Shown piece by piece: positions 1 to 34,707 of a stretch of DNA of 64,000 nucleotides. The notes under the pieces were generated by a model, which was given only the letters and a program-made list of their open reading frames with translations, was not told the DNA's origin and did not search any database. Position numbers and translations under genes: made by a program. How positions within the stretch are numbered: position 1 is the first letter of the stretch; each line of letters starts with the position of its first letter. Source of the stretch: Flagellimonas sp. (GTDB lineage: Bacteria; Bacteroidota; Bacteroidia; Flavobacteriales; Flavobacteriaceae); NCBI RefSeq assembly GCF_965212575.1, contig NZ_OZ243113.1, positions 1,115,662 to 1,179,661 of the forward strand. The letters run 5' to 3'.

Positions 1-1009
1 TTGGTATTTGCAAAATACGGTCGCATTTAGAAAACGCCAACCCTGATCTAAATTTGTTGTATTGGTCATAATTGGATTCATTTTCCAACCAAGCTAGATA
101 AATTGCAGGGGTGTTGACCCCGGCTTCGTGTGAAAAGGGATAACCTCCTCCAAAACGGGGGTTCATTTCCAAAAAGTAGACCTCACCATCGACCACAAAG
201 AAATCGCAATCCATGTTGCCAACATGTTTTGTCGCTTTAGCAATTTTTTCGGCAACCATATTATACTTTTGGTTAACAATGGAAATGGCCTTGTCCGTTT
301 CTCCAGAACGCATCCCCAATTTTTTACGAACAAACGAGCCATAGTATTCTCCATCAAAATTGTTCAAAATATCAATGCCATATTCCTCACCGTTAAGTTT
401 TTCTTGTATCATTATGCAATTTTCGGCATCTGAAGAGCTTACTGTTCCAAGAATTGACCTGCTTACCTTTAGGTGTTGTAATTTATAGGAAAGCTCAAGT
501 TCCTCAACGGATTTAACAATGTCAATGCTTATTGAAGCACTTCCCCAACGCGGTTTTACCACAAGTGGAAAATGTAATTCATTGTTTTTAAGTGCTTCTT
601 TGGCAGAAGCGATATTTATGTAGGTAAGCGGGGTTTTAATGCTATTTTCTTTAAAGAAGTGATAGGATTTCCATTTGTCAAAGCAGATATCAATCACATT
701 TTGGGATGAAATCAAAATCCGTGCTCCAGATTTTTCCAATTGTTCCTTGTTCTTTGCTAAAATGGGCAGCTCAAGGTCGTTAAGAGATATAACGGCATCA
801 ATTTTTTCTTCGGTAATGACTTTTTCAATTGCCGAAATATAATTTTTATCATATATACTTGGTACTTTTTTTGCAACATCAGCATCAACTAAAGCCGGTG
901 CCGAAAGCTGCATATCCACGGCAACAACGGATCCTTTGCCATTTAAAGCCTCTTTAAAATAGTTTATTAGATAATTTCTGCGACCTGCACAGGTAAATAG
1001 AATATTCAT
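1..1009 (-). CDS. ATP-grasp family amide ligase (carbamoyl-phosphate-synthase-like fold); C-terminus lies beyond the left window edge
   Basis: Absent from the ORF track because there is no stop inside the window. My hand translation of the minus strand from ATG at 1009 stays open to position 2: MNILFTCAGRRNYLINYFKEAL...HFPLVVKPRWGSASISI...VYFLEMNPRFGGGYPFSHEAGVN... The KPR.G..S and E.NPR.GG blocks are typical of ATP-grasp ligases. Confidence 0.75.
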   Translation of the reverse strand, partial: MNILFTCAGRRNYLINYFKEALNGKGSVVAVDMQLSAPALVDADVAKKVPSIYDKNYISAIEKVITEEKIDAVISLNDLELPILAKNKEQLEKSGARILISSQNVIDICFDKWKSYHFFKENSIKTPLTYINIASAKEALKNNELHFPLVVKPRWGSASISIDIVKSVEELELSYKLQHLKVSRSILGTVSSSDAENCIMIQEKLNGEEYGIDILNNFDGEYYGSFVRKKLGMRSGETDKAISIVNQKYNMVAEKIAKATKHVGNMDCDFFVVDGEVYFLEMNPRFGGGYPFSHEAGVNTPAIYLAWLENESNYDQYNKFRSGLAFSKCDRILQIP

Positions 1010-1019
1010 TGCGTTAGGA

Positions 1020-2039
1020 TTAAGCTGTTTTCAATCTATATTTTGGGAAAAAATTGGACTCCGTGTTTTTTTGTTCTTCAGTAAGCATGTTTTCATAGGC
1101 CTTTGGCATAACCACAAACTTCCACACCTTGAACGCTGCATAATTTTTGGAAAACGAAGATTTGAACCTCATCAAAGACCCTTCCCTTCCTCCGGTTCCA
1201 CCGCCAAGATTTAGAAATTTCACATCATTTTTTTTATATCGTTTTCGGCATTCGTCAAACAAAAGTCGCAAAGGGCTGCTTTTAAAATACTTTTCCACTG
1301 TAAATGCAAGCTCTACATGAGCAATTTCCTTTGTTTCAATTAGCAATGCACCAGCCATTATTTCATTGGTTTCGCAATTAACTGCAAATAGTATATCTGT
1401 TGTAAAGAAATTGGAATTGAACAATGTGGTGAAATAGTTTTCATCAAAATAGAATAGCGATTTGGCTTTCAACCTATCCAAACTTCTATGGTAGTATTTA
1501 ATAAAAGCTTTCAAATCCTTTTTTAAATCCCCAACCCGTATGTAACTGTTCTTCCTTAACTTTTTAAGGACTTGTCTTGTGTTTCTGCTGTATGCTGTAC
1601 GTTGCTCTTCTTCATTCGAAGTTTGGTCAAAATAAACCAATTCCCCAACATTTTCGATTCGCCCCATGTTCTTTAATATAGCGTTCTGCATAGGGACATA
1701 TGGATTGAGTTTTGAAAAAATGGCAATTATTTTTTTACTTTCCAACAAATTTTTCAGCGCCTTCGAAAAATCTTTGTTTTCAAAATCATGATCTAGGTTT
1801 TTATGGACCGGCCCAAGATAGCCATGAACAGAAGTTAAGTCCTTATAACCATTCTCCAAGGTTCTTTCAATAACAGGAAGTCCAATTTGTGTAGTTCCTT
1901 GTTCGTAAGCTATCAGTAAAACCTTTTCATCAATATTACAGAGCAATTGGTGATAATCATAGGTATGATAAAAATCGAAATGGTCCATACTTGAAACCCA
2001 TTTGTCCCATTCACCTTTATGTTCAATTATTTTGATCAT
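1020..2039 (-). CDS. FemAB/FemX-like (GNAT-fold) aminoacyl/acyl transferase
   Basis: 339-aa ORF. The C-terminal LNLGGGTGGREGSLMRFKSSFS resembles the G..G(L)..FK..F signature of FemAB-type transferases. Its start overlaps the upstream stop by 4 nt (ATGA, 2036-2039). Call rests on motif and length only. Confidence 0.55.
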   Translation of the reverse strand: MIKIIEHKGEWDKWVSSMDHFDFYHTYDYHQLLCNIDEKVLLIAYEQGTTQIGLPVIERTLENGYKDLTSVHGYLGPVHKNLDHDFENKDFSKALKNLLESKKIIAIFSKLNPYVPMQNAILKNMGRIENVGELVYFDQTSNEEEQRTAYSRNTRQVLKKLRKNSYIRVGDLKKDLKAFIKYYHRSLDRLKAKSLFYFDENYFTTLFNSNFFTTDILFAVNCETNEIMAGALLIETKEIAHVELAFTVEKYFKSSPLRLLFDECRKRYKKNDVKFLNLGGGTGGREGSLMRFKSSFSKNYAAFKVWKFVVMPKAYENMLTEEQKNTESNFFPKYRLKTA

Positions 2040-2908
2040 TTGGCCAAGTAATTAAATATCCCTCCCGTGTACCAAAACAACACCTGACCTTTGATATTGT
2101 TTTTCTTTACAGTTTCCAACATTCCATAAAAGGCTTTTGCGGTATATGTGGTATCAAGGGCAAAACCATAATTCATTAATGAATCATCGGCTATTTGTTT
2201 TATTTCTTCATTATATTTTTCATAACCACCACATAAAAAGGAATCATCAACTATGACTTTTGTCGATGTTCCGCTGATGTTATTTTTCTCGCATAATTGC
2301 TCATAAAACTCTTGTACGGTATTTTGGGCTTTTTTAGAAGTTCTGCCCACTGAAATCCCCACTACCTTAATGTCCAAACCCTTTTTGGTGATTCCAGCTA
2401 AAAGACCAGCATGAGTAGTCCCTGATCCTGAGGCCAAGAAAATATATTCCGGTGCATGGCCAGAATCTATTAACTTTTCCAGTTCGCTGATGTAACAGCT
2501 GCCCCCGTCGAATGTATGTCCTCCCCCATAGAGATAAAGCGGATTTAAACCACTTTCATTGTAGGCCTGCATCGCAAAATCCATTTTGCCCGATATTTCG
2601 CAGGGATTACAGAAAATTAGCGAAGCACCACTTTCTCTAATTATTTTGGCGTTACCCGATTCAATGAACATTCGTTCTCTATCGCCATGAAGTACCAAAG
2701 TGCATTTAAGGTTGTTCTTTTTTGAATAAAGAGCGGTTGCCCTACAGTGATTAGACTGAATGCCCCCGGTTGTAACAATGGCACTATAGTTCTCATCTTT
2801 TATTCTTGAATCCAAAGCCATCATTTTTCTAGCTTTATTGCCTCCACCCAAATACGGATACATATCATCACGAAAGACAGATATCTGATTAGTTATTCTT
2901 TGTATCAA
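2036..2908 (-). CDS. Fold-type II PLP enzyme, D-cysteine desulfhydrase / ACC deaminase family
   Basis: 290 aa. FRDDMYPYLGGGNKARKM (PLP-lysine motif) and GGIQSNHCRATAL match the DcyD/ACC-deaminase family. It looks shorter at the N-terminus than canonical DcyD. It overlaps the upstream sugar transferase gene by 20 nt. Confidence 0.7.
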   Translation of the reverse strand: MIQRITNQISVFRDDMYPYLGGGNKARKMMALDSRIKDENYSAIVTTGGIQSNHCRATALYSKKNNLKCTLVLHGDRERMFIESGNAKIIRESGASLIFCNPCEISGKMDFAMQAYNESGLNPLYLYGGGHTFDGGSCYISELEKLIDSGHAPEYIFLASGSGTTHAGLLAGITKKGLDIKVVGISVGRTSKKAQNTVQEFYEQLCEKNNISGTSTKVIVDDSFLCGGYEKYNEEIKQIADDSLMNYGFALDTTYTAKAFYGMLETVKKNNIKGQVLFWYTGGIFNYLAK

Positions 2909-3578
2909 AAGTGTCGGTTTTAATTGATGTTTTTTGGTTGGTTCGGTAAGTGTCTAGAGCATCCATTGTTAGATCTACAACAATTTCATCTTCCGAGGTA
3001 TGGAAGATTTTTTTGACCGTTTTCAAGAGAATAGCTACATCTAACCAGAAAGTAAGTCTGTTTACATATTCAATGTCCAGAGCTAATTTTTGATCCCAGT
3101 TCAATTTATTCCTTCCTGAGACTTGTGCCAATCCTGTAATTCCTGGCTTAACGGTATGCCTTATTTTTTCTTCCTGTGTATAATAGGGGAGATATCGTAC
3201 TCGCAATGGTCTAGGACCTACCAAACTCATGTCTCCCTTAATTACATTTATAAGTTGTGGTATTTCATCTAAAGAACTTTTTCTTAGAAAATTTCCAATG
3301 GGTGTTAGCCTATCAGCATCGGGAAGTAAACTTCCGGAAGCATTGGTTGCATCACTCATAGACTTGAATTTAATAATCTCAAATATTTCCTCATTTTTTC
3401 CAGGTCTTTTTTGGAAGTAAAAAGGTTGTTTTTTATTTGTGAACCATAAGATTATATAGATTATGATGAAAACTGGAGACAAGATAAGCAAGCCAATTAG
3501 GGATGAAATAAAGTCAATTATCCGTTTAATTAAGTTTCCGTACATATTGAGGTTTGTATGGTTATAAGTGTATTCCAA
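2889..3578 (-). CDS. Priming phosphoglycosyl transferase (bacterial sugar transferase, PglC / WbaP-C-terminal type)
   Basis: 229 aa. One N-terminal hydrophobic helix (LLILSPVFIIIYIILWF), then the KFKSM and LDEIPQLINVIKGDMSLVGPRPL motifs of the bacterial sugar transferase family. Confidence 0.85.
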   Translation of the reverse strand: MEYTYNHTNLNMYGNLIKRIIDFISSLIGLLILSPVFIIIYIILWFTNKKQPFYFQKRPGKNEEIFEIIKFKSMSDATNASGSLLPDADRLTPIGNFLRKSSLDEIPQLINVIKGDMSLVGPRPLRVRYLPYYTQEEKIRHTVKPGITGLAQVSGRNKLNWDQKLALDIEYVNRLTFWLDVAILLKTVKKIFHTSEDEIVVDLTMDALDTYRTNQKTSIKTDTFDTKNN

Positions 3579-3633
3579 AAGTACTTTATCATAACAGAGA
3601 AGTAATCATAATATTATAAGAATATTATTGGTT

Positions 3634-4938
3634 TTAAAGATTTGGTTCCTGATAATATTTGTTTAATGTCAACTTTCTTTTTCCAGAGGACAACCTTGGT
3701 ATTTCATCCACATATTCAAAATAGATGTTGGCCTCATCACCAAGGTATTTTTTTAATAAGGTTTTGGCCTTTTCCTCCTTGTGAAATATGCCTTCAATGT
3801 TGAGCAGAACTTTATAATCTTTTTTACCTTCTTGAATTACTTGAAATTGTTTGAGTTGGGGAAAATGTTCAAACTCATAAGCCAAATACGGTGATATTCT
3901 ATTTCCAGAGGAATCAAAAAGAACGTCCATTTTCCTTCCTTCAATTTGAGTTAAAACAGGAGCACTGCTAAACCGATTTTCGCAGATATCCATAATTCCT
4001 AAATCTCCGGTATCGTATCTTATCATTGGCATGCAATAGTTGAACAAATCGGTAATTACAATGCGCCCAAGTTGTCCGTTTTTCACTGGTTTATCACTAT
4101 CAATTTCCAGAATTTCCACATGATAGCTCGCCCAATTGATATAGAAATTGTCTCCGAGACCAGGTAATTGTTGGGCAATAATTCCGTTTTCGGCATTGCT
4201 ATACCTTGAAATGACATTGGTATTGAAAAAGCTCTCCAAGTCATTCTTGGTTTTTGGACTCAATGCCTCTGCAATTGCAATTATTGAAGATACTTTGGTG
4301 CCTAACTTGTCTTTTTTTCTTGTTAAATAATCACATAAGTCTTTGTAGGCGGAAGAATAGCCAATTAAAGAAATGGCCGCATTACTTTTCGAAAGTTTAT
4401 TTGTAAGGCTGTCTAAATGGCCATCTGTTAATTTTGAGACATCAATTGGAATGACATTCTGGATCCATTTAGTTATTGGGTTTTTGGAATTCGTTTTATC
4501 CCATTTCCTAAAATAGTACAACGGCTGCCCCAAAACATATCCACCTTTCTTTCCAAAATATAATGTATCTGCCGTATTTCGTTCTTTTTTTTTCCGATCT
4601 TGAACCACCTGAAAAGGAGTGCCTGTAGAGCCACTTGTCTGAACCTGGTATGTAGGTTCTTGGAAACCTGCGTTGGCTTGAAAATTTTTAAAATGCTTCC
4701 GTAATTTTATTTTATCAATTATCGGGAAATCGTTTAGAGAAGTGTGATCACTGAAATCTGAATAGAAAATTGTGTTAGTTGTTGAATGATCCAAAATGTT
4801 TTTAAGAATTTGTTCTCTGCGAGCTAATGAGTCTTCACTGTCGAACTTTTCTAAAATGGATTGGATATCATCAAAGTGGCTTTTTACATTGCCTCCCCTT
4901 AACTTGTCAAATAGCCAAAATGCCCTATCTCTGATCAT
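3634..4938 (-). CDS. CapK / PaaK-like adenylate-forming enzyme (phenylacetate-CoA ligase / F390 synthetase family), paralogue 2
   Basis: 434 aa. Has the TSGSTGTPF adenylation P-loop, IRYDTGDL and a C-terminal LSSGKRKL. Collinear with the ORF at 5984-7297. Confidence 0.7.
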   Translation of the reverse strand: MIRDRAFWLFDKLRGGNVKSHFDDIQSILEKFDSEDSLARREQILKNILDHSTTNTIFYSDFSDHTSLNDFPIIDKIKLRKHFKNFQANAGFQEPTYQVQTSGSTGTPFQVVQDRKKKERNTADTLYFGKKGGYVLGQPLYYFRKWDKTNSKNPITKWIQNVIPIDVSKLTDGHLDSLTNKLSKSNAAISLIGYSSAYKDLCDYLTRKKDKLGTKVSSIIAIAEALSPKTKNDLESFFNTNVISRYSNAENGIIAQQLPGLGDNFYINWASYHVEILEIDSDKPVKNGQLGRIVITDLFNYCMPMIRYDTGDLGIMDICENRFSSAPVLTQIEGRKMDVLFDSSGNRISPYLAYEFEHFPQLKQFQVIQEGKKDYKVLLNIEGIFHKEEKAKTLLKKYLGDEANIYFEYVDEIPRLSSGKRKLTLNKYYQEPNL

Positions 4939-5005
4939 TTTTGTTTAAGTTTTTATAACACCATTGGGCGTAAAACGGGGAAGCTTTTAAAAAATATTTG
5001 GTTGG

Positions 5006-5959
5006 TTACAAAACCATTTTGGTATCAATTCTCAGTTTTTCTAACATAATTTCAGTCATATCCATCAAGTTATGGTTAGGTTTCCAGCCCCAGTCCTGTC
5101 TAGCTCTAGAATCGTCGATTGTTTTTGGCCAACTGTCAGCTATTTTTTGGCGAAAATCCGGTTCATATTTTATTTGAAAATCTGGGTAGACAACTTTAAT
5201 TGAATGGGCAATTTCTTCAGGAGAAAAACTGATACCAGCCAAATTATAGGCCGATCGTACCCTAATATCGGATGAATCAGCCTCCATAATTTCCATAGTT
5301 GCGCGAATAGCATCATCCATATAGATCATGGGCAATGTGGTGTCCCCTTTTAAGAAACATATAAAATTCTGGTGGTTAACGGCTTTATGATAAATATCCA
5401 CGGCATAATCCGTTGTACCACCTCCAGGAAGCGATTGATAACCGATAATTCCAGGGTACCTTAGAGATCTTATATCCGTTTTATACTTTTTATGGTAATA
5501 CTGCATAAGGCTCTCTGCTGCCACCTTGTTAACCCCATACATGGTTGACGGGTTAAGTGGGGCATTTTGTGGCGTATTGAAAGAAGGTGCATCCTCTCCA
5601 AATACGGCAATTGAACTTGGGAAAAATACTTTTCCAATGTTATGCTTTCTTGAAACTTCCAAAACATTTAACAAAGATCCCATATTCACATCCCAAGTTA
5701 CAACTGGATTTTCTTCTCCTTTGGCTGAAAGTATTGCTGCCAAATGATAAATTTGGGAGATGCCATATTTCTGGACAATCTTTTCTAAAGCAGAATAATC
5801 GGTGGCGTCCAAATGTTCGAAAGTACCATCGGTAAATATTGATTCGGTAATATCGGATGCAACCACAGAATTTGTCCCATATTTATATCTTAAAGCTTCG
5901 GTTAAGACACTTCCAATCTGCCCACAGGCTCCGGTTACTAAGATGTTGCTAATTTTCAT
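5006..5959 (-). CDS. Extended SDR resembling UDP-galactose-4-epimerase-like L-threonine 3-dehydrogenase
   Basis: 317 aa. Motifs seen: VTGACGQIG (NAD), MYGVNKVAAE (Y-x-x-x-K), PGGGTTDYAV and YEPDFRQKIADSWPKTIDDSRARQDWGWKP. I recognise this pattern from SDR-type threonine dehydrogenases. Confidence 0.65.
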   Translation of the reverse strand: MKISNILVTGACGQIGSVLTEALRYKYGTNSVVASDITESIFTDGTFEHLDATDYSALEKIVQKYGISQIYHLAAILSAKGEENPVVTWDVNMGSLLNVLEVSRKHNIGKVFFPSSIAVFGEDAPSFNTPQNAPLNPSTMYGVNKVAAESLMQYYHKKYKTDIRSLRYPGIIGYQSLPGGGTTDYAVDIYHKAVNHQNFICFLKGDTTLPMIYMDDAIRATMEIMEADSSDIRVRSAYNLAGISFSPEEIAHSIKVVYPDFQIKYEPDFRQKIADSWPKTIDDSRARQDWGWKPNHNLMDMTEIMLEKLRIDTKMVL

Positions 5960-5983
5960 TGTAAATAGGCTTATGGATTTTGT

Positions 5984-7297
5984 TCAATTAGTTGTTTCAT
6001 TTACGACAAGTTTCCTTTTTCCAGAGGACAACAAAGGGATTCCTTTCACGTATTCAATATTGATATCGGCATCTTGCCCCAAATATCCTTTGAATTCGTT
6101 TATTAATTCATCTTCTCTCGGAAATGTTTTCCATGGGTTTAATCGGAATACATATTCTTTATGCCCTTTTTGTGCAAATTGATACTGTTTTAATTCTGTA
6201 TACTTCCACATATTAACCGTTACTATATGAGAAGTAATTACATTGTTGTTGGTGTCTCTTATCAAATCAACTTTCCTACCTTCGATACTCTTTAACACAG
6301 GTGCGCCATTTTCTTTGGAATTCTCAGACATATAAGCTAAATCTCCAGTATCATATCGTATCAAGGGCATACAATAGTTGAAAAGATCGGTAACCACTAC
6401 TCTTCCCATTTTTCCTGGCTCTACTGGAACATCTTTGTCAGGATGAAGCAGTTCAATATAAAAACTGGCCCAATTTACGTGAAACTCATACCCGCCCAAA
6501 CAGCTCTGCTGAGCTAGCATACCACACTCCATGTTGGAGTATCTTGATACCACAGGGACTTCAAAATAATGTTCCATTCTATCTTTGGTATGGTTACTTA
6601 AGGCATCTGAGTTTGTGATGACCGAGGTAATATTGTAATTGTTGGGTTTAGCTTTGACCGAATCTAAATAATTGGCTATGACATCACAAGTAGAGGCAAA
6701 GCAAACCAACCCTTTTTTGGATATGTCCTTATCTAAATCTTTAATCAATTGTTTGATATCTTCATCCGTATAGTTAAAAATACTGTAGGGTCTAATGTTT
6801 TCCATCCATAATTTGAAAGGGGATTTCTTGTTGATGTCATTCCATACCTTCATATAAATCAACCGGGAACCTATTTCAAATCCACCTTTTTTAGCAAAGT
6901 ATATAATATCGGCATTATTTCTGCACCTTTTATTTTGATTGTGAAACAGCTTAAAGGGTGTCCCCGTGGAACCGCTGGTTACTACAGGAGTATTTTCAGC
7001 GTTCAAGAACTTATCGGACTTAAACTGATCATAATTATCTCTGACTGTTCCCTTATTGATCACTGGAAAATCTTCCAATTTTGCCCCCTTAGCATGCCTT
7101 GTATAAAAGGGGACAGTTTTAATGGCATGGTCTAAGGCTTTTTTTAGATGCGAATCTCTTCTTTTCTTGGATTCTTTGGACTGGAAATTCTCCAAAATAA
7201 AAGTGATATCATTGTAGTGTTTTCTTATTGGACTACCTTTGAAAAAATCCAAACACCAAAAACATAGTTTCCTAAATCTCTCCAACAGTGGTTTCAT
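5984..7297 (-). CDS. CapK / PaaK-like adenylate-forming enzyme, paralogue 1
   Basis: 437 aa. Has TSGSTGTPF, VVSRYSNMECGMLAQQ, TDLFNYCMPLIRYDTGDL and LSSGKRKL. Its start overlaps the upstream stop by 1 nt (TAATG at 7297). Confidence 0.7.
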   Translation of the reverse strand: MKPLLERFRKLCFWCLDFFKGSPIRKHYNDITFILENFQSKESKKRRDSHLKKALDHAIKTVPFYTRHAKGAKLEDFPVINKGTVRDNYDQFKSDKFLNAENTPVVTSGSTGTPFKLFHNQNKRCRNNADIIYFAKKGGFEIGSRLIYMKVWNDINKKSPFKLWMENIRPYSIFNYTDEDIKQLIKDLDKDISKKGLVCFASTCDVIANYLDSVKAKPNNYNITSVITNSDALSNHTKDRMEHYFEVPVVSRYSNMECGMLAQQSCLGGYEFHVNWASFYIELLHPDKDVPVEPGKMGRVVVTDLFNYCMPLIRYDTGDLAYMSENSKENGAPVLKSIEGRKVDLIRDTNNNVITSHIVTVNMWKYTELKQYQFAQKGHKEYVFRLNPWKTFPREDELINEFKGYLGQDADINIEYVKGIPLLSSGKRKLVVNETTN

Positions 7298-8352
7298 TAT
7301 TGGTTTTTTATATTGGTTAGCATTTCTTTGAATAGAGGATGCTTCGCAAACCCTCCATACCCCATTTCACCGTAAAGAAGCCCAGGTTGGTCATTTCCCT
7401 CAATAATTATAGGGCCCAGAGGTGTTATAGCTATATCCCAACCTATTAATCTGTTTGGAATCTGTAAAGCCAGTTCTGAGCAAAGCACTTTTGCTTCATT
7501 CAAAAATGGGATTTTAAACCCTTCAAAGACAAATCCGGTGTCAGGATGTCTGTAATATACTTCACCTCCAAATTTCATGGATTGTGAACCCGCTTTGTCC
7601 AAGTGTTCGGTTTGTTGATTTATTTGGACGTAAAAACCTCCAGAGGACACATTATCCACATTGCTGCCTCCTGTTCCAAATCTCATAAAGTTTACCAAAA
7701 CATGTGGTTTGTGATCATTATCTATATAGGTATTTATACGAATTGTATTGACGGAGTTGGGATAGATTTCCTGTATTTTTGGATGTTGTACTACAGCTAT
7801 TTGATGTATAGTGGCCCCTTGTAATATGATATCTCCATATTTTTTGATTTTATCCGCAAGATTTTCAGGAGTTATCATGAAAATCTGTTTGCCCATACAT
7901 CCCGCCAGGGGTTTAATGAAAATTTTTGATTGACCGGTTTCTACAAATAAATCAGAGAAAAATACGATTAGGCCGTCCTTTGAATCTATTCTTGTCTTAT
8001 GTCCTTTTACAAAAAAAGTATTTTGCATATTGTAACTGAAAACTTCCGGTGTTGGTATCTGGTTTTCCTTACAGAATAACCAAAAAGAGAGCTTGTTTTC
8101 TAATAGGTATATATACTCCTCCTTATTGTGTATTGGAGCATGAATAATAGAAAAATACTCCTTCATAGTTAAAAAGTCTTGGGGTTTTTGAACTTCTTTT
8201 CGATATAAAAAACGTCCAAAATAATGTATTGGGAAGCTTTTCTTTAAAATCCATAATTCTAGAACTTCCTTGACCATTAGAAAAGGATTTTTTTTATCCT
8301 TATCTTTCAGAAACACGCTAATACGCTTAAGGTTATCGCTCAGTTGTCCCAT
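7297..8352 (-). CDS. Sugar-transfer-associated ATP-grasp / alpha-L-glutamate-ligase-related protein
   Basis: 351 aa; first gene of the minus-strand operon. The C-terminal half (NVSSGGFYVQI...HPDTG...IGWDIAITPLGPIIIEGNDQPGL) looks like the ATP-grasp family found next to sugar transferases. Call from motifs only. Confidence 0.6.
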   Translation of the reverse strand: MGQLSDNLKRISVFLKDKDKKNPFLMVKEVLELWILKKSFPIHYFGRFLYRKEVQKPQDFLTMKEYFSIIHAPIHNKEEYIYLLENKLSFWLFCKENQIPTPEVFSYNMQNTFFVKGHKTRIDSKDGLIVFFSDLFVETGQSKIFIKPLAGCMGKQIFMITPENLADKIKKYGDIILQGATIHQIAVVQHPKIQEIYPNSVNTIRINTYIDNDHKPHVLVNFMRFGTGGSNVDNVSSGGFYVQINQQTEHLDKAGSQSMKFGGEVYYRHPDTGFVFEGFKIPFLNEAKVLCSELALQIPNRLIGWDIAITPLGPIIIEGNDQPGLLYGEMGYGGFAKHPLFKEMLTNIKNQ

Positions 8353-8721
8353 AGGTAAAAAAGGGATGAAGGTTTTGGTTGTTATTATTGGTAAAACTAG
8401 ATCTATACGTTGTTATGGATAATTTTAATGGATTAACGTATTGATATTTTGGTTGTAGTGCTTTTCAAAAGGTAATCAATACCCTGTAATTGCACCAGAG
8501 GGGTTTTTATGTACGTCGTATTTATTTATACGTTTATATTCAAAGTTTTCGGAAGAGGATTTGTTTTTCTGGCTTTTTTTAGGAACAGGAAATTTGCAAA
8601 AAAATAATGCCAAGGGAATTATTTCTAAATTGCCTTTAGATAAAAATTTTAAGTATATAGAATTAAAATAGAGGGGATTATAAATCCTTTAGTTTTTAAA
8701 GAATGTTAAAATATGTGGCAG

Positions 8722-8793
8722 TTCATCGATAAAAGACCATCGATGAAATCCATATGTTTAGATAGGTTCGTAAAGTTACTGCATTTCATCGAA
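8722..8793. promoter_or_regulatory. Three copies of TTCATCGA: a perfect 9-bp inverted repeat plus one downstream direct copy; candidate operator upstream of the beta-helix lipoprotein gene
   Basis: TTCATCGAT (8722-8730), an 8-nt spacer, then ATCGATGAA (8739-8747). A third copy, TTCATCGA, lies at 8785-8792. All sit in the 503-bp divergent intergenic region. Confidence 0.35.
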
Positions 8794-8855
8794 TAATTTC
8801 GTTTTTAAACGATTTTGCTTTGAAGAAGACTTAATTTTAGAATCTCAATCTCTTT

Positions 8856-10922
8856 ATGACTATGAAAATTGCCTGTCCCCACCTACCTACTATGTTAATA
8901 TTGACTATTTTTATGTTGTTTTTTTCCTCATGCGATAAAGACAACGATCTTTTTTTGGAAGCTGTCCTCGAGGAAGAACAGGTTGAACAATCTGAGACAA
9001 CTGGGGATGAGACACCATCAGATAGCTCACCAGGGAATCCTAGCGGAAACACTAATACAACTATTATTAAGGATGACCCTGAAGGCCCCACGGCCAAGCC
9101 GCCTACAATTTTGGGTACTTATACCCCAAGTTCGGCAGCTGAGATCTCTGACCCTTCCAAAGCCAATTACAAAGCAATAATTTCAAGTTCTTTTGATTGT
9201 GATGACTGTGTTTTTGCCTCTGGTCAAGTTATTGAACCAAATGGTGGTGTAATTAGTGGACGAAATATTGACCTAAACGATGCATTTATTGAGGAGAATG
9301 GTAAACAGGCTTTTTCTTCTAGTGCCAAGTTTTCTTCAGTATATGATAAAACTAGGGTAAGTCCTGAACTTTTTGGAGGAATGGCAAATGACTCTAACAG
9401 TGATGATAATGCTATAGAAGCGTTAATTGATAACTGTCAGTTTGGCTCTGGGGTTTTGAATGGTGTTTACATCAAAAATAATGAATCCGTGCATAGGCGA
9501 CCTGGAGAATTCAACTGGAATATGAATGAAGCAATTGTACGGACGACCAATGGGGTCAACCTTAGCCATGGTACCGAAACGACCAATTTGGATAAATATC
9601 TAATTTTCTTTGAAGGGCTTATTCCTAAGATATTTAATGGTGAATTCGATGGAAACGAAATAGCTAGTAGAGCTATTAGGGTTGATAAAACGACATCATA
9701 CTTTTTTAAAGACTTATACATACACGATTATTATTCGCCTCCAAATGCTTACGCCAGAGCAGTAGCTTTAAAATTGGATGTTCGAGCGGATTCAGCCCAT
9801 AACTTTACATTAGGAGAAGTTTTTGATTGTAGAATAGAGAATATTGGAGCTGCCAGTAACTCAAATGCAAATGATTCTCCTTGGGGGGTTTCAAAAGCGA
9901 TTTGGACAAGTCAATCTGGTAATGGTGATGCAAATCTATATTTTTCTGGAAACCGCATCACCAATATTCATGGCGATGACGCTGAAGCTTATTATAGTGA
10001 CAAGCTATGGGGAGGTTCATACGACTATCAACAAAGCCGAGTGAATTACATTTTTGATAACGAGGATTACCGGGGGGCTCAACGAAGGGCTATGAAGATT
10101 ACTGTCTCCAACGCAGTGATTGTAAACTCTTATTTTGAGAGTGTTACCAACGCACCCACATTTGCTGGTGCCCAGGCAACCTTGTTACACTTTTTTAGTA
10201 CAAGTGGATCTGACCAACCGCTTGATGACATAACATTCAGTAACAATGAAATTAGAATTGTGGGGAATGCACAAAACAATCCTTTGGGCTTCAACGATAT
10301 CAAGGACTGTAAGTTTAATAACAACTCCATTATTTGCGATACCTTTACGGCTTACAGTTTTATTGGATTCGGAACGGGAATATCCGATCCATATTCCGGT
10401 GATTTCGAGAACGTGGAAATTAAGGGGAACAATATAACAAATGCATTTTGTCATTTTGACACAGTCTACAATCCTATCAATGGAGGACCGGAATTTGTTG
10501 ATAATGATTTTGATATAACCCTAGAGGAGAACCCTGGTGCTTATATAGGTGTTTTCAGAATTTTCCAATCTTCTGGTATTTATCCGGAATTCCATGCTAG
10601 CAACGTTGACATAAACGTTAATCTGGCATCAAATGCTGGAGCGGCCCTTTTTGGTGGCGTATTCAATACTTGGGGAGCTGAAGCTAAAAATTGGACTTTA
10701 GATAATATAACAATAAATTATACTGGTGTTAATCCTCAATACCCTTTTGCCTATACTGGCAAAAATGATACCTCAGCCGACTTTGACAGCACAAATACAA
10801 TTAGCAACTGTACTATCAATGGTGCAAGTGGGACAGGCGCGATATTTGTTAAAGGTGCTGATCAATCAGTAGTTATTTCAAATAGTTTTGGCGATGGGTC
10901 AACAGCACTTACCGTACAATAA
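8856..10922 (+). CDS. Secreted lipoprotein with predicted right-handed beta-helix (pectate-lyase/tailspike-like); candidate polysaccharide hydrolase or lyase
   Basis: 688 aa. Lipobox LFFSSC followed by an E/S/T/P/G-rich linker. GGMANDSNSDDNAIEALIDNC resembles the GA.GDG.TDDT.AIQ.AI start of pectate_lyase_3-type beta helices. N/G/I/V-rich segments recur (NNEIRIVGNAQNN, NNNSIICDTF, IKGNNITNAF). Confidence 0.55.
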   Translation: MTMKIACPHLPTMLILTIFMLFFSSCDKDNDLFLEAVLEEEQVEQSETTGDETPSDSSPGNPSGNTNTTIIKDDPEGPTAKPPTILGTYTPSSAAEISDPSKANYKAIISSSFDCDDCVFASGQVIEPNGGVISGRNIDLNDAFIEENGKQAFSSSAKFSSVYDKTRVSPELFGGMANDSNSDDNAIEALIDNCQFGSGVLNGVYIKNNESVHRRPGEFNWNMNEAIVRTTNGVNLSHGTETTNLDKYLIFFEGLIPKIFNGEFDGNEIASRAIRVDKTTSYFFKDLYIHDYYSPPNAYARAVALKLDVRADSAHNFTLGEVFDCRIENIGAASNSNANDSPWGVSKAIWTSQSGNGDANLYFSGNRITNIHGDDAEAYYSDKLWGGSYDYQQSRVNYIFDNEDYRGAQRRAMKITVSNAVIVNSYFESVTNAPTFAGAQATLLHFFSTSGSDQPLDDITFSNNEIRIVGNAQNNPLGFNDIKDCKFNNNSIICDTFTAYSFIGFGTGISDPYSGDFENVEIKGNNITNAFCHFDTVYNPINGGPEFVDNDFDITLEENPGAYIGVFRIFQSSGIYPEFHASNVDINVNLASNAGAALFGGVFNTWGAEAKNWTLDNITINYTGVNPQYPFAYTGKNDTSADFDSTNTISNCTINGASGTGAIFVKGADQSVVISNSFGDGSTALTVQ

Positions 10923-28768: not shown

Positions 28769-30097
28769 TTATTTTTTTCCTATTTGATAATAAGTAAACC
28801 CTAGTTCATCCAATCTAGTATGGTCGAATTGGTTTCTTCCGTCAAAAATAATAGGTTCCATTAAAGTGTCTTTCATCTCCATAAAATCCGGGGAACGAAA
28901 CTCTTTCCATTCGGTAAGCAACAACATAGCATCTGCATTTTGAAGCGCCTCGTATTTCGTCTTTGTGTACGTCACGTTTGGTACGTTCTTTAGATAAAAT
29001 GACTGTGCTTCATGTATGGCTTTAGGATCATATGCTTGAACTTTAGCCCCTAAACCAGTCAGTTTTTTGATTATGTAAATGGAAGGAGCTTCGCGCATGT
29101 CATCGGTTCCTGGTTTGAAGGACAGCCCCCAAACTGCAAAAGTTTTGCCTTCCAAATCATCTCCATAATGACCTATTACCTTATCTGCTATCACAAATTT
29201 TTGTCGGTCATTGACATCTTCCACTGCATTCAGGAGTTGAGCATCATAGCCTTCTTGTTCGGCGGTCTTTTTTAAAGCCTTAACATCTTTGGGGAAACAA
29301 GAACCTCCATATCCACTACCTGGATAAATAAAACTGTATCCAATACGACTATCTGAACCAATACCAATTCTAACCTTGTTGACGTCAGCTCCAACGCGTT
29401 CGCAAATATTAGCTACCTCGTTCATAAACGAAATTTTGGTGGCCAACATCGCATTCGCTACATATTTGGTCATTTCCGCAGAGCGTACATCCATTACCAG
29501 CATACGATCCATACTACTTCTAAAAAAAGGAGCGTACAACCGTCGCATTTTTTCTGCCGTTTCCTTATCCTCCGTTCCTACTACAACTCTGTCTGGTTTC
29601 ATAAAATCGCCTAAGGCGTCACCTTCCTTTAAAAATTCAGGATTGGAGACAACATGAAATGTTATGTCCTCATTTCTCTTTTTCAATTCTTTCTGAATAG
29701 TGGCTCTTACTTTGTCCGCAGTTCCAACAGGCACAGTGGATTTGTCAACAACAATAAGAGGGGTGGTCATATGTTGCCCAATCTCCTTGGCAACTTGTAG
29801 CACGTATTGCAAATCTGCAGAACCATCTTCTCCCATAGGAGTTCCTACGGCAATAAAGGCCATATCACAATTTTCCAAACAGTCTTTTAATTGGGTGTGA
29901 AAATGCAGAGTTCCATTGGCCACATTACGTTTTACCATGGCTTCAAGGCCTGGCTCATAGATGGGTATTATGCCATTTTTAAGGTTTTCTATTTTCTTCT
30001 CATCAATGTCCACACAGGTAACATTGTTTCCCATTTCTGCGAAACATGTACCTGTGACCAAACCTACATATCCTGTCCCTACAATTGTTAATCTCAT
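28769..30097 (-). CDS. ugd: UDP-glucose 6-dehydrogenase
   Basis: 442 aa. Has [16 protein letters not shown] and the catalytic GGSCFPKD. Confidence 0.93.
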
Positions 30098-31630: not shown

Positions 31631-32764
31631 ATGGAAACTACTTTGCAGAAAAAAATATGGTTGTCATCTCCCCACATGGGTGGCACGGAACAAAGCTATG
31701 TGAATGAAGCCTTTGCAACCAATTGGGTTGCACCTTTGGGTCCAAACGTTAGTGGTTTTGAAATAGATATTCAAGAGTATATTGGGAATAATATTAATGC
31801 CGCATGTTTAAGTTCGGGTACTGGTGCTATTCATTTGGCTTTGGAACTTCTCGGGGTAACTCAAGGGGATGAGGTGCTTTGCCAAAGTTTTACGTTTGCG
31901 GCCTCGGCCAACCCAATTACCTATTTGGGGGGCAAGCCTATTTTTATTGATAGTGAACGTGATACATGGAATATTTCTCCAGATTTGCTGGAGAGGGCAA
32001 TATTGGATAGAATTCAATATGGTAAAAAACCCAAGGCTATTATCGCCGTGCATTTATATGGAATGCCCTACAAGGTCGATGAGGTTATTTCAATTTCCCA
32101 TAAATATGACATCCCAGTAATTGAGGATAGTGCAGAAGCTTTAGGTAGCAGGTATAAAGACATAAGATGCGGAAGCTTTGGTGATATGGCCATTTTGTCG
32201 TTTAATGGAAATAAAATCATTACAACTTCTGGCGGAGGGGCCTTATTGTGTAAAGATGAACACATTAAAAAAAGAGCAGTTTTTCTAGCTACCCAGGCAA
32301 GAGACAACGCTCCGCATTATCAACATTCCCACATAGGCTACAATTATCGAATGAGCAATGTTCTTGCTGGTATTGGACGAGGACAGATGGAAGTTCTTCC
32401 GCAACGAGTTCAGGCAAGGCGGGATAATTTTGCGTTTTACCATAAAAACTTAGCCGGAATTTCAGAGATAAAATTTCTTGAAGAACCAAAAGGATTCTAT
32501 TCAAACAGATGGCTCACATGTATTTTAACCCCTTCATTTGAGGTACGAGAGAATATTAGAGTGAAGTTGGAACATGAGAATATTGAATCCCGACCACTAT
32601 GGAAGCCCATGCATTTGCAGCCAGTATTTGAAAACGAAGTCCATTATACTAATGGTGTGAGTGAAGATCTTTTTAATAGAGGTTTATGCCTGCCCAGTGG
32701 TTCTAATCTGGACCAAGAAGATTTAGAAAAGATTTGCCACATCATTAAAAACCTACTTAAATGA
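31631..32764 (+). CDS. DegT/DnrJ/EryC1/StrS-family sugar aminotransferase (PglE-like, 4-keto-6-deoxy-HexNAc 4-aminotransferase)
   Basis: 377 aa. Has SFNGNKIITTSGGGALL (PLP lysine). An ATGA overlap links it to the downstream PglF/CapD-like dehydratase. Confidence 0.85.
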   Translation: METTLQKKIWLSSPHMGGTEQSYVNEAFATNWVAPLGPNVSGFEIDIQEYIGNNINAACLSSGTGAIHLALELLGVTQGDEVLCQSFTFAASANPITYLGGKPIFIDSERDTWNISPDLLERAILDRIQYGKKPKAIIAVHLYGMPYKVDEVISISHKYDIPVIEDSAEALGSRYKDIRCGSFGDMAILSFNGNKIITTSGGGALLCKDEHIKKRAVFLATQARDNAPHYQHSHIGYNYRMSNVLAGIGRGQMEVLPQRVQARRDNFAFYHKNLAGISEIKFLEEPKGFYSNRWLTCILTPSFEVRENIRVKLEHENIESRPLWKPMHLQPVFENEVHYTNGVSEDLFNRGLCLPSGSNLDQEDLEKICHIIKNLLK

Positions 32765-34707
32765 TAAAAAAGTACATTTTTGACAATAATCGGCACTATG
32801 CATCTAAATGGACGGTATTGTTCATTGATTTGTTCATCGCCGCCGCTTGTTTCATCTTGGCTTATTTTATAAGATTTAATCTCAGCTTCAGCTTTGATGT
32901 TCAAAAATTGTGGACACAGCTACCAATAGTAATTCTTCTGTTTTTGGGAGCCTTTCTCATATCAGGAAGTTATAAAGGAGTTGTTCGGCATACCGGAATA
33001 AAGGATGTCTATGCAATTTTCAATGCTATCTGTTTGGCCAGTATTAGTACCATTGTGTTGATTCTATTTAACAGATATGCCAAGATAGTTGATGGATTCA
33101 CTATTCCATTATCCATTATTATCATTAACAGCTTACTTGCATTCATTGCACTTACGGCGGCTAGATACGTTTTTAAGATTGTATTTGAAAGTTTGGTTAA
33201 CAGAAATGAGATTCCGACCAAGAACATTATCGTTTACGGTGCGGGTGAGTCAGGTATAATCACATACAACACCTTGACAAATCATTCCAAAATGAAGGTT
33301 AAGGTTGTTGGATTTGTTGATAACAACCTTCAGAAAGTTGGTAAACAGATAAATGGGGTCAAAGTATATAACAAAAATATCCTTACAAGGGATTTCGTTA
33401 GATTTAACAACATTTCGGAAATTATTTTCTCTATTCAGAGTATCCCGCCTAGAAAACTTAGAACTCTGGTTAACGAGATTGTAGATCTTCCTGTAAATGT
33501 GAAGATCGTACCCCCAGTGGAAGATTGGATAAACGGGGAGCTGAAAGTTTCTCAGATCAAGCAGGTCCAGATTGAAGATTTATTGGATAGACCTCCAATT
33601 CAAATCAAAAACAGCAAGGTCATGAAGGATTTTGAAGACAAGGTCATCATGGTTACTGGAGGTGCAGGATCTATTGGAAGCGAGTTGGTTCGTCAAATCT
33701 GTAAATACAACTATAGGGCGCTAGTTGTTGTCGACCAAGCGGAATCGGCGCTCTATGACCTACAACAAGAGCTTAAACAGGCAGGATACTTCAATTTTAT
33801 CCCAATAGTCGGTGATATCAGGGATAAAAATAAAATGCGTGTTTTGTTCGAGGAATATAAACCGGATAGAATTTTTCATGCCGCTGCATATAAGCATGTT
33901 CCGCTCATGGAATGTAACCCCTATGAAGCAGTTAAGATTAATGTAGCGGGCACAAAAAACCTGGTCGATTTGGCAATCGAGTATGATGTTGAAAAATTTG
34001 TTTTTGTATCCACCGATAAAGCTGTCAACCCCACTAATGTAATGGGCGCGACCAAGAGAATCGCTGAAATGTATATCAGTAGTAGACAACAAGACGACAA
34101 GACAAAATTTGTTACTACAAGATTTGGAAATGTTTTGGGGTCCAATGGTTCGGTTATACCTTTGTTCAGGAAACAAATTGAAAAAGGAGGGCCTTTAACG
34201 GTTACACACAAGGATATCACAAGATATTTTATGACAATTCCTGAAGCTTCCCAGTTGGTTCTTGAAGCCGGAGCGATGGGAAAGGGAGGTGAGATTTTTA
34301 TATTTGATATGGGTGAATCTGTCAAGATTATGGATTTGGCCAAAAATATGATTCGACTTTCTGGGCTCCATTACCCTGATGATATTGATATAAAAATTAC
34401 AGGGCTCCGTCCGGGCGAAAAGCTATATGAAGAACTTTTGGCCAATGGTGAAAACACTTTACCAACCTATCATGACAAAATAATGATAAGTAAGGTTAGG
34501 GATATTGATTATGCTAAAACAAGGAATATGATTGATGAGCTTTGTATTTCAAATCTATTCTTTAAAGATAATGTAGTTCAATTAATGAAAAGAATTGTTC
34601 CTGAGTACATCTCTAACAACTCCGATTTTTGTAAATTGGACGATGAGAAGGAAGAATCAAAAACTGAGAAAACTTCAAGATCTAATATTGCACAACTCAA
34701 CAGCTAA
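32761..34707 (+). CDS. Membrane-anchored UDP-GlcNAc 4,6-dehydratase (CapD / PglF / WbpM family)
   Basis: 648 aa. N-terminal TM helices, then VTGGAGSIGSEL, HAAAYKHVP and MGATKRIAE. Confidence 0.88.
   Translation: MIKKYIFDNNRHYASKWTVLFIDLFIAAACFILAYFIRFNLSFSFDVQKLWTQLPIVILLFLGAFLISGSYKGVVRHTGIKDVYAIFNAICLASISTIVLILFNRYAKIVDGFTIPLSIIIINSLLAFIALTAARYVFKIVFESLVNRNEIPTKNIIVYGAGESGIITYNTLTNHSKMKVKVVGFVDNNLQKVGKQINGVKVYNKNILTRDFVRFNNISEIIFSIQSIPPRKLRTLVNEIVDLPVNVKIVPPVEDWINGELKVSQIKQVQIEDLLDRPPIQIKNSKVMKDFEDKVIMVTGGAGSIGSELVRQICKYNYRALVVVDQAESALYDLQQELKQAGYFNFIPIVGDIRDKNKMRVLFEEYKPDRIFHAAAYKHVPLMECNPYEAVKINVAGTKNLVDLAIEYDVEKFVFVSTDKAVNPTNVMGATKRIAEMYISSRQQDDKTKFVTTRFGNVLGSNGSVIPLFRKQIEKGGPLTVTHKDITRYFMTIPEASQLVLEAGAMGKGGEIFIFDMGESVKIMDLAKNMIRLSGLHYPDDIDIKITGLRPGEKLYEELLANGENTLPTYHDKIMISKVRDIDYAKTRNMIDELCISNLFFKDNVVQLMKRIVPEYISNNSDFCKLDDEKEESKTEKTSRSNIAQLNS

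Follow-up and report, generated by a model that had tools for sequence, protein, structure and literature searches.

A threonine dehydrogenase paralog paired with a CapK-type ligase in a glycan locus of Flagellimonas sp.

[quoted passage not shown] What, then, is a TDH-like gene doing at positions 5006-5959 (minus strand) of a 64,000-nucleotide stretch of the genome of Flagellimonas sp. (contig NZ_OZ243113.1, positions 1,115,662 to 1,179,661; hereafter the window), among genes for glycan synthesis and with a CapK-type ligase gene on either side? The best explanation is that this copy, a supernumerary paralog, no longer serves threonine catabolism and forms one half of a two-gene cassette with the adjoining ligase gene, CapK1, in a glycan-tailoring locus centred on a small phosphoglycosyltransferase and a PylC-like ATP-grasp ligase. 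It is judged to be a standard enzyme recruited into a conserved tailoring cassette, and the comparative signal is clean.

The gene is an uninterrupted open reading frame of 317 amino acids; the plus-strand frame at the same place is stop-rich. All motifs quoted in the original prediction, a reading of the DNA letters alone, were found in the product: GACGQIG (residues 10-16), YGVNK (141-145), GGGTTDYAV (179-187), YEPDFRQKIADSWP (265-278) and DDSRARQDWGW (282-292). That prediction had associated the pattern with the GalE-like TDHs of SDR (short-chain dehydrogenase/reductase) type, and not with sugar epimerases, and sequence scores, fold and conserved columns agree with it. Membership of the product in the SDR-type TDH family is settled. 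When the product was compared with the sequences of the PDB, the best 18 matches were all SDR-type TDHs (246-426 bits), whereas the best epimerase scored 77 bits; the E-values were 9e-107 for the enzyme of Flavobacterium frigidimaris (2yy7) and 8e-127 for a designed TDH. Among the solved TDHs that were matched are those of F. frigidimaris, Cupriavidus necator, Thermoplasma volcanium, mouse and trypanosomes, which have been studied biochemically. An AlphaFold (AF2) model of the product (predicted local distance difference test, pLDDT, 93.9) superimposed on the C. necator holo-enzyme with a template modelling (TM) score of 0.95 and a root-mean-square deviation (rmsd) of 1.1 Å, and the top 50 Foldseek matches of the model in the PDB were all TDHs (TM 0.92-0.95, rmsd 1.0-2.4 Å). 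The placement of the protein against validated TDHs and epimerases, as suggested at the outset, thus falls on the side of the TDHs. Domain models were less specific: Pfam reported generic Epimerase and GDP_Man_Dehyd domains only, no NCBIfam model passed its cut-off, and proteins of this type carry the public annotation 'NAD-dependent epimerase/dehydratase family'. The NCBIfam models for sugar-nucleotide enzymes scored 20-67 bits against cut-offs of 224-760, among them galE (66.9; cut-off 262), heptose epimerase (61.6; 274.6), rmlD (34.2; 224) and gmd (29.3; 415).

Regarding the residues, the Rossmann motif reads G10-A-C-G13-Q-I-G16, with glycines that are invariant or nearly so in the family, and the acidic D36 (in VVASD36, after beta-2) points to a preference for NAD+. 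The catalytic set of extended SDRs is intact (P114-S115-S116, Y141 and K145), in columns that are 94-98% conserved family-wide; for the TDH of Trypanosoma cruzi, Thr and Tyr have been named as catalytic residues (PMC11910319). In a family alignment of 118 members, drawn from a library of 1.8 billion proteins and a search for near homologues, the window TDH retained all 41 of the columns that showed at least 85% conservation in the 111 members outside its own clade (see below), including S78, E82, P114-S115, Y141, K145, G180-G181, D184 and the proline of DSWP. The family blocks S78..E82, PGGGTTDYAV, PDFRQ..DSWP and DDS.A..DW.W are all present. The enzymes of F. frigidimaris (2YY7), C. necator (3WMX) and T. 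volcanium (3A1N) resemble the window copy in family, fold and length, with 50-52% identity in structural alignment and TM scores of 0.94-0.95, and share with it GxxGxxG, the Ser/Tyr/Lys set, GGGTTDYAV and DSWP. In contrast to these three, the window copy belongs to a separate clade of Flavobacteriaceae, which is never linked to kbl and always stands beside a CapK-type ligase gene in a glycan locus.

Four real columns (I15, S95, V143 and L151) separate this CapK-linked clade from the catabolic clade, and each of the four residues is common elsewhere in the TDH family. Clade-specific insertions or deletions were not found in the family alignment. A neofunctionalized pocket was considered and rejected, since the discriminating columns contain nothing novel for the family and indels are lacking. 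With the conserved columns unchanged, the simplest interpretation is that the enzyme still carries out the same reaction on free L-threonine.

The association with a ligase is the property that sets the clade apart. The nearest relatives of the window TDH (81, 67 and 68% identity) are all encoded beside a ligase with a CapK_C domain, a Bac_transf protein and a PylC-like ATP-grasp ligase. In a maximum-likelihood tree, seven CapK-linked TDHs formed one clade (ultrafast bootstrap, UFBoot, 98; SH-aLRT 96), sister to an asnC-tdh(-kbl) clade; three of the seven were inspected after the tree had been computed, and each had the CapK context. When all 120 near homologues were placed in a tree, the clade gained three further members, two of which lay on usable contigs; both showed, as the tree predicted, a CapK-TDH pair followed by convergent genes for an ATP-grasp protein (plus CapK) and a small phosphoglycosyltransferase (PGT). 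A CapK gene was directly adjacent to the clade TDH in all nine assessable loci. A PylC-like ATP-grasp gene and a small PGT gene were also nearby in eight of the nine; the PGT count comprises the window, six loci by identity (55-76%) and two by Pfam, and the ATP-grasp count comprises the window, five loci by identity (63-79%) and two by Pfam. The CapK proteins next to TDH are 64-82% identical to CapK1 of the window and form one clade with a support of 99, the branching order of which broadly matches that of the TDH tree. In genomes that lack the CapK-linked TDH, the closest CapK proteins are 58-59% identical and fall into the sister group, even where the locus is otherwise syntenic (L037). Among the 80 best CapK loci of species-representative genomes, TDH occurred within 6 kb in one, which is itself a member of the clade. 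Of these 80 loci (L040-L119), 39 have Bac_transf no more than 6 kb from CapK, which suggests that CapK enzymes often act on a priming sugar or precursor.

Within the clade, the ratio of nonsynonymous to synonymous substitution rates (dN/dS) was 0.04-0.12, with synonymous sites near saturation; together, these values indicate that the CapK1-TDH linkage was kept over a long divergence. A pseudogene or decaying copy was rejected on the same dN/dS values. CapK1-TDH is a cassette that is under selection, inherited together and rare, lying in a CapK/PGT type of locus that is itself widespread; about 10 instances were seen, all from marine Flavobacteriaceae or related metagenomes. The TDH gene does lie between two adenylating enzymes in a glycan operon, CapK1 and CapK2, as had been predicted; with respect to the role given to both flanking ligases, CapK1, upstream, proved to be the conserved partner, whereas CapK2, downstream, adjoins TDH only in the window and in its closest relative (L017). 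The pyridoxal phosphate (PLP) enzyme and the FemAB-like GNAT further along are, among the loci of the clade, likewise confined to the window and L017. The intergenic gaps are 24 nt to CapK1, which suggests co-transcription, and 67 nt to CapK2.

Is the missing kbl informative? The family as a whole follows the usual pairing cited in the original prediction: the arrangement asnC/lrp <> tdh-kbl was present in 9 of the 13 loci of the best-scoring relatives. No match to TIGR01822 (kbl) was obtained within the window, as noted at first, and kbl was found in none of the nine CapK-linked loci. As an argument for a special role of the window copy, however, its absence from the window is weak, as the asnC-linked copy of the same genome also has no adjacent kbl. 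The host genome (one contig of 3.84 Mb) contains four full-length TDH copies, the other three being 59, 54 and 54% identical to that in the window. The search for a tdh-kbl pair elsewhere, which had been proposed as a check, gave a kbl gene and no pair: the sole true kbl, at 3.10 Mb, is about 2 Mb away from the window and adjoins none of the four copies. In most relatives the order is asnC<>tdh-kbl; in this genome, kbl has been split from the asnC-tdh pair.

Copy 2 has kept asnC and groups with a locus of the asnC-tdh type at a support of 98, and this partner and grouping mark it as a copy of the catabolic type. The scores against the validated F. frigidimaris TDH were 479 bits for copy 4, 360 for the window copy and 352 for copy 2, so that, by sequence, the window copy and copy 2 are equally distant from that enzyme, with copy 4 closest to it. 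Multiple copies are exceptional: among 150 sampled genera of Flavobacteriaceae, 133 yielded a TDH match and 129 of the 133 had exactly one copy. The 15 congeners examined yielded no protein more than 57% identical to that of the window, and a single TDH was present in 14 of them. Flaviramulus and Cognatitamlana, which carry the CapK-linked copy, each have a second TDH copy as well. The G+C content is 36.1% in the minus-strand operon (window 1-8352) and 38.6% in its TDH gene, compared with 40.8% in the genome and 41-43% in the other three TDH copies; the low value, together with the lack of this copy in the 15 congeners, is consistent with acquisition by transfer.

We propose that TDH oxidizes free L-threonine and that CapK1 links the resulting 2-amino-3-oxobutanoate (AKB) or aminoacetone to a glycan precursor by an amide bond, a reading for which the balance of probability is about even. 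TDH would act as a catalytically ordinary, NAD+-dependent enzyme that converts free L-threonine to AKB. AKB is unstable and decays to aminoacetone unless it is cleaved by KBL (PMC9814548). If KBL is not co-expressed, AKB or its decarboxylation product aminoacetone could be captured by CapK1, which would replace KBL as the consumer of the TDH product. The tdh-kbl operon for catabolism of threonine to glycine and acetyl-CoA starts with the same enzyme and presumably also yields AKB as its first product (PMC9814548); unlike that operon, the window copy has neither kbl nor a divergent asnC beside it, and the place of kbl is taken by an ATP-dependent ligase instead of a PLP-dependent CoA-acetyltransferase.

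The CapK1 step would be an ATP-dependent amide formation on a nucleotide- or lipid-linked sugar, for which two routes can be envisaged. In route (a), the amine of AKB or aminoacetone would attack the adenylated carboxylate of a uronic acid, comparable to the role of VpsH with glycine (see below); in route (b), AKB would be adenylated and then passed to a 4-amino sugar made by PglF/PglE-like enzymes. Candidate genes for both acceptors are located in the window: for uronic acids a Ugd-family dehydrogenase (28769-30097), a WecB-like epimerase and an AsnB-like amidotransferase, and for 4-amino sugars the genes of the PglF-like (32761-34707) and PglE-like (31631-32764) enzymes. CapK1 and CapK2 share the window with glycan assembly genes (PGT, Wzx/Wzy, Wza and Wzc). 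CapK1 itself matched PaaK-type models of NCBIfam below their cut-offs, and the solved structures most similar to it are those of phenylacetate-CoA ligases and of PaaK-like ligases that form amides. The more specific proposal that the pair installs a threonine-derived amino-ketone, either as an N-(2-oxopropyl) uronamide or as a 2-amino-3-oxobutanoyl N-acyl group, is doubtful.

In the Campylobacter jejuni HS:2 glucuronamide pathway (Cj1435-Cj1438), serinol or ethanolamine is synthesized by enzymes of the cluster and then attached by an ATP-grasp amide ligase. The likeness lies in a locus that supplies both functions, the conversion of a primary metabolite to a small amine and the ligation of this amine to a uronic acid; the difference lies in the enzymes (a PLP transaminase/decarboxylase and a phosphatase, with a TupA-like ATP-grasp ligase) and in the amine. 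For the family of CapK1, the only functional precedent found is VpsH of Vibrio cholerae, which is offered here as an analogy. VpsH is a CapK/PaaK-like protein that is required for glycine to be added to the uronic acid (GulNAcA) of the lipid-linked disaccharide of Vibrio polysaccharide (VPS) (PMC13463779). Like CapK1, it is a CapK-family adenylate-forming protein of a polysaccharide locus, and it installs an amide-linked amino compound; unlike the TDH-CapK1 pair, it takes an amino acid that is already available and is accompanied by no gene specifically for making the amine, and the two were likened by family and not by direct alignment.

Several points weigh against this mechanism. The evidence on VpsH is genetic and from liquid chromatography-mass spectrometry only (PMC13463779), the chemistry has not been reconstituted, and the enzymology of CapK proteins is unproven. 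No known bacterial glycan was reported to bear an aminoacetone or 2-amino-3-oxobutanoyl group, the glycan structure assumed here being itself a predicted one, and the decorations that have been reviewed are Thr, allo-Thr and oxoprolyl groups only (PMC10609480). The kbl gene present in trans could still cleave AKB to glycine. The short loci of the clade showed no genes for uronic acids or amino sugars in the DNA that was covered. The statement that the pocket is unchanged is based on conservation in the family and not on mapped substrate contacts. A structure-based prediction of a TDH-CapK1 complex, each protein with its own alignment, returned a score of 0.00, which is no answer and counts neither for nor against binding. 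A literature search yielded nothing relevant on TDH in O-antigen or capsule clusters, on uronamides of aminopropanol or aminoacetone, on CapK enzymology or on the context of amidoligases. The earlier idea that the TDH product feeds a ligase draws real support from the adjacency of a distinct TDH clade to one CapK orthologue group, which is constant; its chemistry, that is, the substrate, the handover and the decoration, is what we infer.

Among the alternatives, an unlikely one that nevertheless fares best places the ligase first: CapK1 or the ATP-grasp protein would attach L-threonine to the sugar, and TDH would then oxidize the bound residue or assist in making allo-threonine through a keto intermediate; another beta-hydroxy amino acid is possible as well. 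Amides and N-acyl groups of Thr, L-allo-Thr and D-allo-Thr are documented on glycans (PMC10609480), and the tight CapK1-TDH linkage fits either order of reaction. However, the pocket would presumably have to be remodelled to take a bulky substrate with a sugar attached, whereas all columns conserved in the family, those of GGGTTDYAV and DSWP included, are unchanged and the lid and loops show no indels, and inversion at C3 would need a second reductase, none of which is conserved in the module.

Quite unlikely is a supply of precursor. In this case the copy, together with KBL encoded in trans, would simply enlarge the flux from threonine to glycine and so feed a CapK ligase that adds glycine, as in Vibrio VPS. 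The functional-looking kbl, the addition of glycine by VpsH and the normal appearance of TDH would suit this explanation; against it, glycine belongs to the primary metabolites and is plentiful, so that a cluster seldom needs a gene of its own for it, kbl does not accompany any of the CapK-linked loci (0/9), and TDH co-varies with one CapK orthologue group and not with CapK proteins in general (1/80 loci). A redundant catabolic paralog that reached the glycan locus by an accident of gene transfer, with no role in glycan synthesis, is improbable. Four copies in one genome show that paralogs are accumulating, and the window copy is found in none of the 15 congeners, but a chance neighbour would hardly have stayed next to CapK1 in 9/9 loci with synonymous sites near saturation, nor do the matching clades of CapK1 and TDH and the 24-nt gap fit an accident. 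That the product is a nucleotide-sugar epimerase, dehydratase or reductase merely resembling TDH, the alternative allowed for in the original prediction, is hardly credible and is rejected, as the generic Pfam domains and the public label speak for it while the sugar models far under their cut-offs, the 77 bits of the best epimerase against at least 246 for every TDH, the TDH-only structural matches and the intact TDH-specific motifs speak against it.

If the proposed capture by CapK1 is true, it would be the first example of a purposeful production of AKB or aminoacetone as a unit for a cell-surface polysaccharide, and the CapK1-TDH pairing suggests that oxidized threonine is the source of a surface-sugar decoration in some marine Flavobacteria. 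CapK-family ligases are very common in glycan loci of Bacteroidota and almost uncharacterized, and the pair would then provide a defined two-gene system for working out their function. With about 10 instances, the importance of the cassette is mechanistic and not ecological. The TDH identity also corrects the public label of an 'NAD-dependent epimerase/dehydratase family protein' and supplies a substrate that can be tested. Speculatively, the 2-amino-3-oxobutanoyl option would open a biosynthetic entry to the 3-hydroxy-3-methyl-5-oxoprolyl groups of Vibrio cholerae O5 and Plesiomonas O74. Such groups are known glycan substituents (PMC10609480). Their carbon skeleton is what a cyclized N-acyl-AKB would be expected to give, and on paper, by chemical reasoning, the oxoprolyl ring would be the intramolecular aldol product of N-acetyl- or N-malonyl-2-amino-3-oxobutanoate; no published biosynthetic route to them was found, including in the review (PMC10609480). 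The features discussed are listed in Table 1.

Table 1. Genes of the minus-strand string in the window, and the remaining TDH and kbl genes of the host genome.
Feature	Coordinates	Strand	Basis or remark
SDR-type L-threonine 3-dehydrogenase paralog, CapK-linked clade, 317 aa	5006..5959	-	TDH scores, fold, conserved columns, tree
CapK1, CapK/PaaK-like adenylate-forming ligase, 437 aa, conserved TDH partner	5984..7297	-	orthologues carry PF27533 CapK_C
CapK2, second CapK-like ligase, different CapK clade, 434 aa	3634..4938	-	40% identical to CapK1
Small polyprenyl-phosphate phosphoglycosyltransferase (Bac_transf), 229 aa	2889..3578	-	PF02397, E = 5e-62
PLP enzyme, ACC-deaminase/D-cysteine-desulfhydrase fold	2036-2908	-	accessory
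FemAB-like GNAT	1020-2039	-	accessory
PylC-like ATP-grasp ligase (PRK12767 type), 3' end beyond window	2..1009	-	NF009404 410 bits, cut-off 316; PDB 2pn1 8e-50
Sugar-transfer-associated ATP-grasp (PF14397), first gene of string	7297..8352	-	E = 7e-43; 1-nt overlap with CapK1
TDH copy 2	genome 2246607-2247524 (L012 9584-10534)	-	divergent asnC adjoining
TDH copy 3	genome 3828454-3829377 (L013 9452-10405)	+	beside two Exo_endo_phos genes and a TPR-AraC regulator
TDH copy 4	genome 3620746-3621672 (L014 9741-10685)	-	beside moaC/moaE
kbl, sole true one of genome	genome 3104584-3105759 (L015 9570-10772)	+	TIGR01822, 707 bits

The minus-strand string consists of eight genes, transcribed in the order ATP-grasp_ST, CapK1, TDH, CapK2, Bac_transf PGT, PLP enzyme, FemAB-like GNAT and PylC-like ATP-grasp, with junctions that are either overlaps (-20, -4 and -1 nt) or gaps of 10-67 nt. 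A scan of positions 1-9000 for sigma-70 promoters and terminators gave fewer promoter-like sites than shuffled sequences and no intergenic terminator, the model being uninformative for a genome of the Bacteroidota. Beyond the string follows a divergent Wzx/Wzy locus with gmd/fcl, wzx, an asnB-like gene, wzy, a wecB-like gene, fnlABC, the Ugd-family dehydrogenase, PglE/PglF-like genes, wza and wzc. A protein of about 650-690 amino acids encoded at the border of the ligase module (window 8856-10922, plus strand) had no clear Pfam match; the edge proteins of L019 (20311-20960) and L033 (20882-20960) are placed beside it by position only, and that of L033 has faint NosD/Beta_helix matches.

In the other direction, the ligase-rich string runs past the start of the window (L016, genome 1100000-1116000), where a third CapK gene and two more ATP-grasp_ST genes were found, together with a convergent block of a fourth CapK gene, an AlgX-like gene, an MBOAT gene and a carbamoyltransferase gene; L016 also contains OmpA, GT4 and a GH3/beta-lactamase fusion. 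The combination of MBOAT, AlgX-like and CapK proteins is reminiscent of O-acylation systems. The GH3-bla/GT4/OmpA end has syntenic counterparts in L018, L037 and L112, which indicates a conserved chromosomal site hosting a variable glycan module. The locus of Flaviramulus sp. BrNp1-15 is a compact one of 12 kb. In the compact loci of Flaviramulus, Cognatitamlana and one metagenome contig, a UbiE-type methyltransferase is encoded near TDH (L019 13007-17063, L033 13656-16008, L035 2931-3668), and in two of these three loci a protein of the YqcI/YcgG family is encoded between ATP-grasp_ST and a second CapK.

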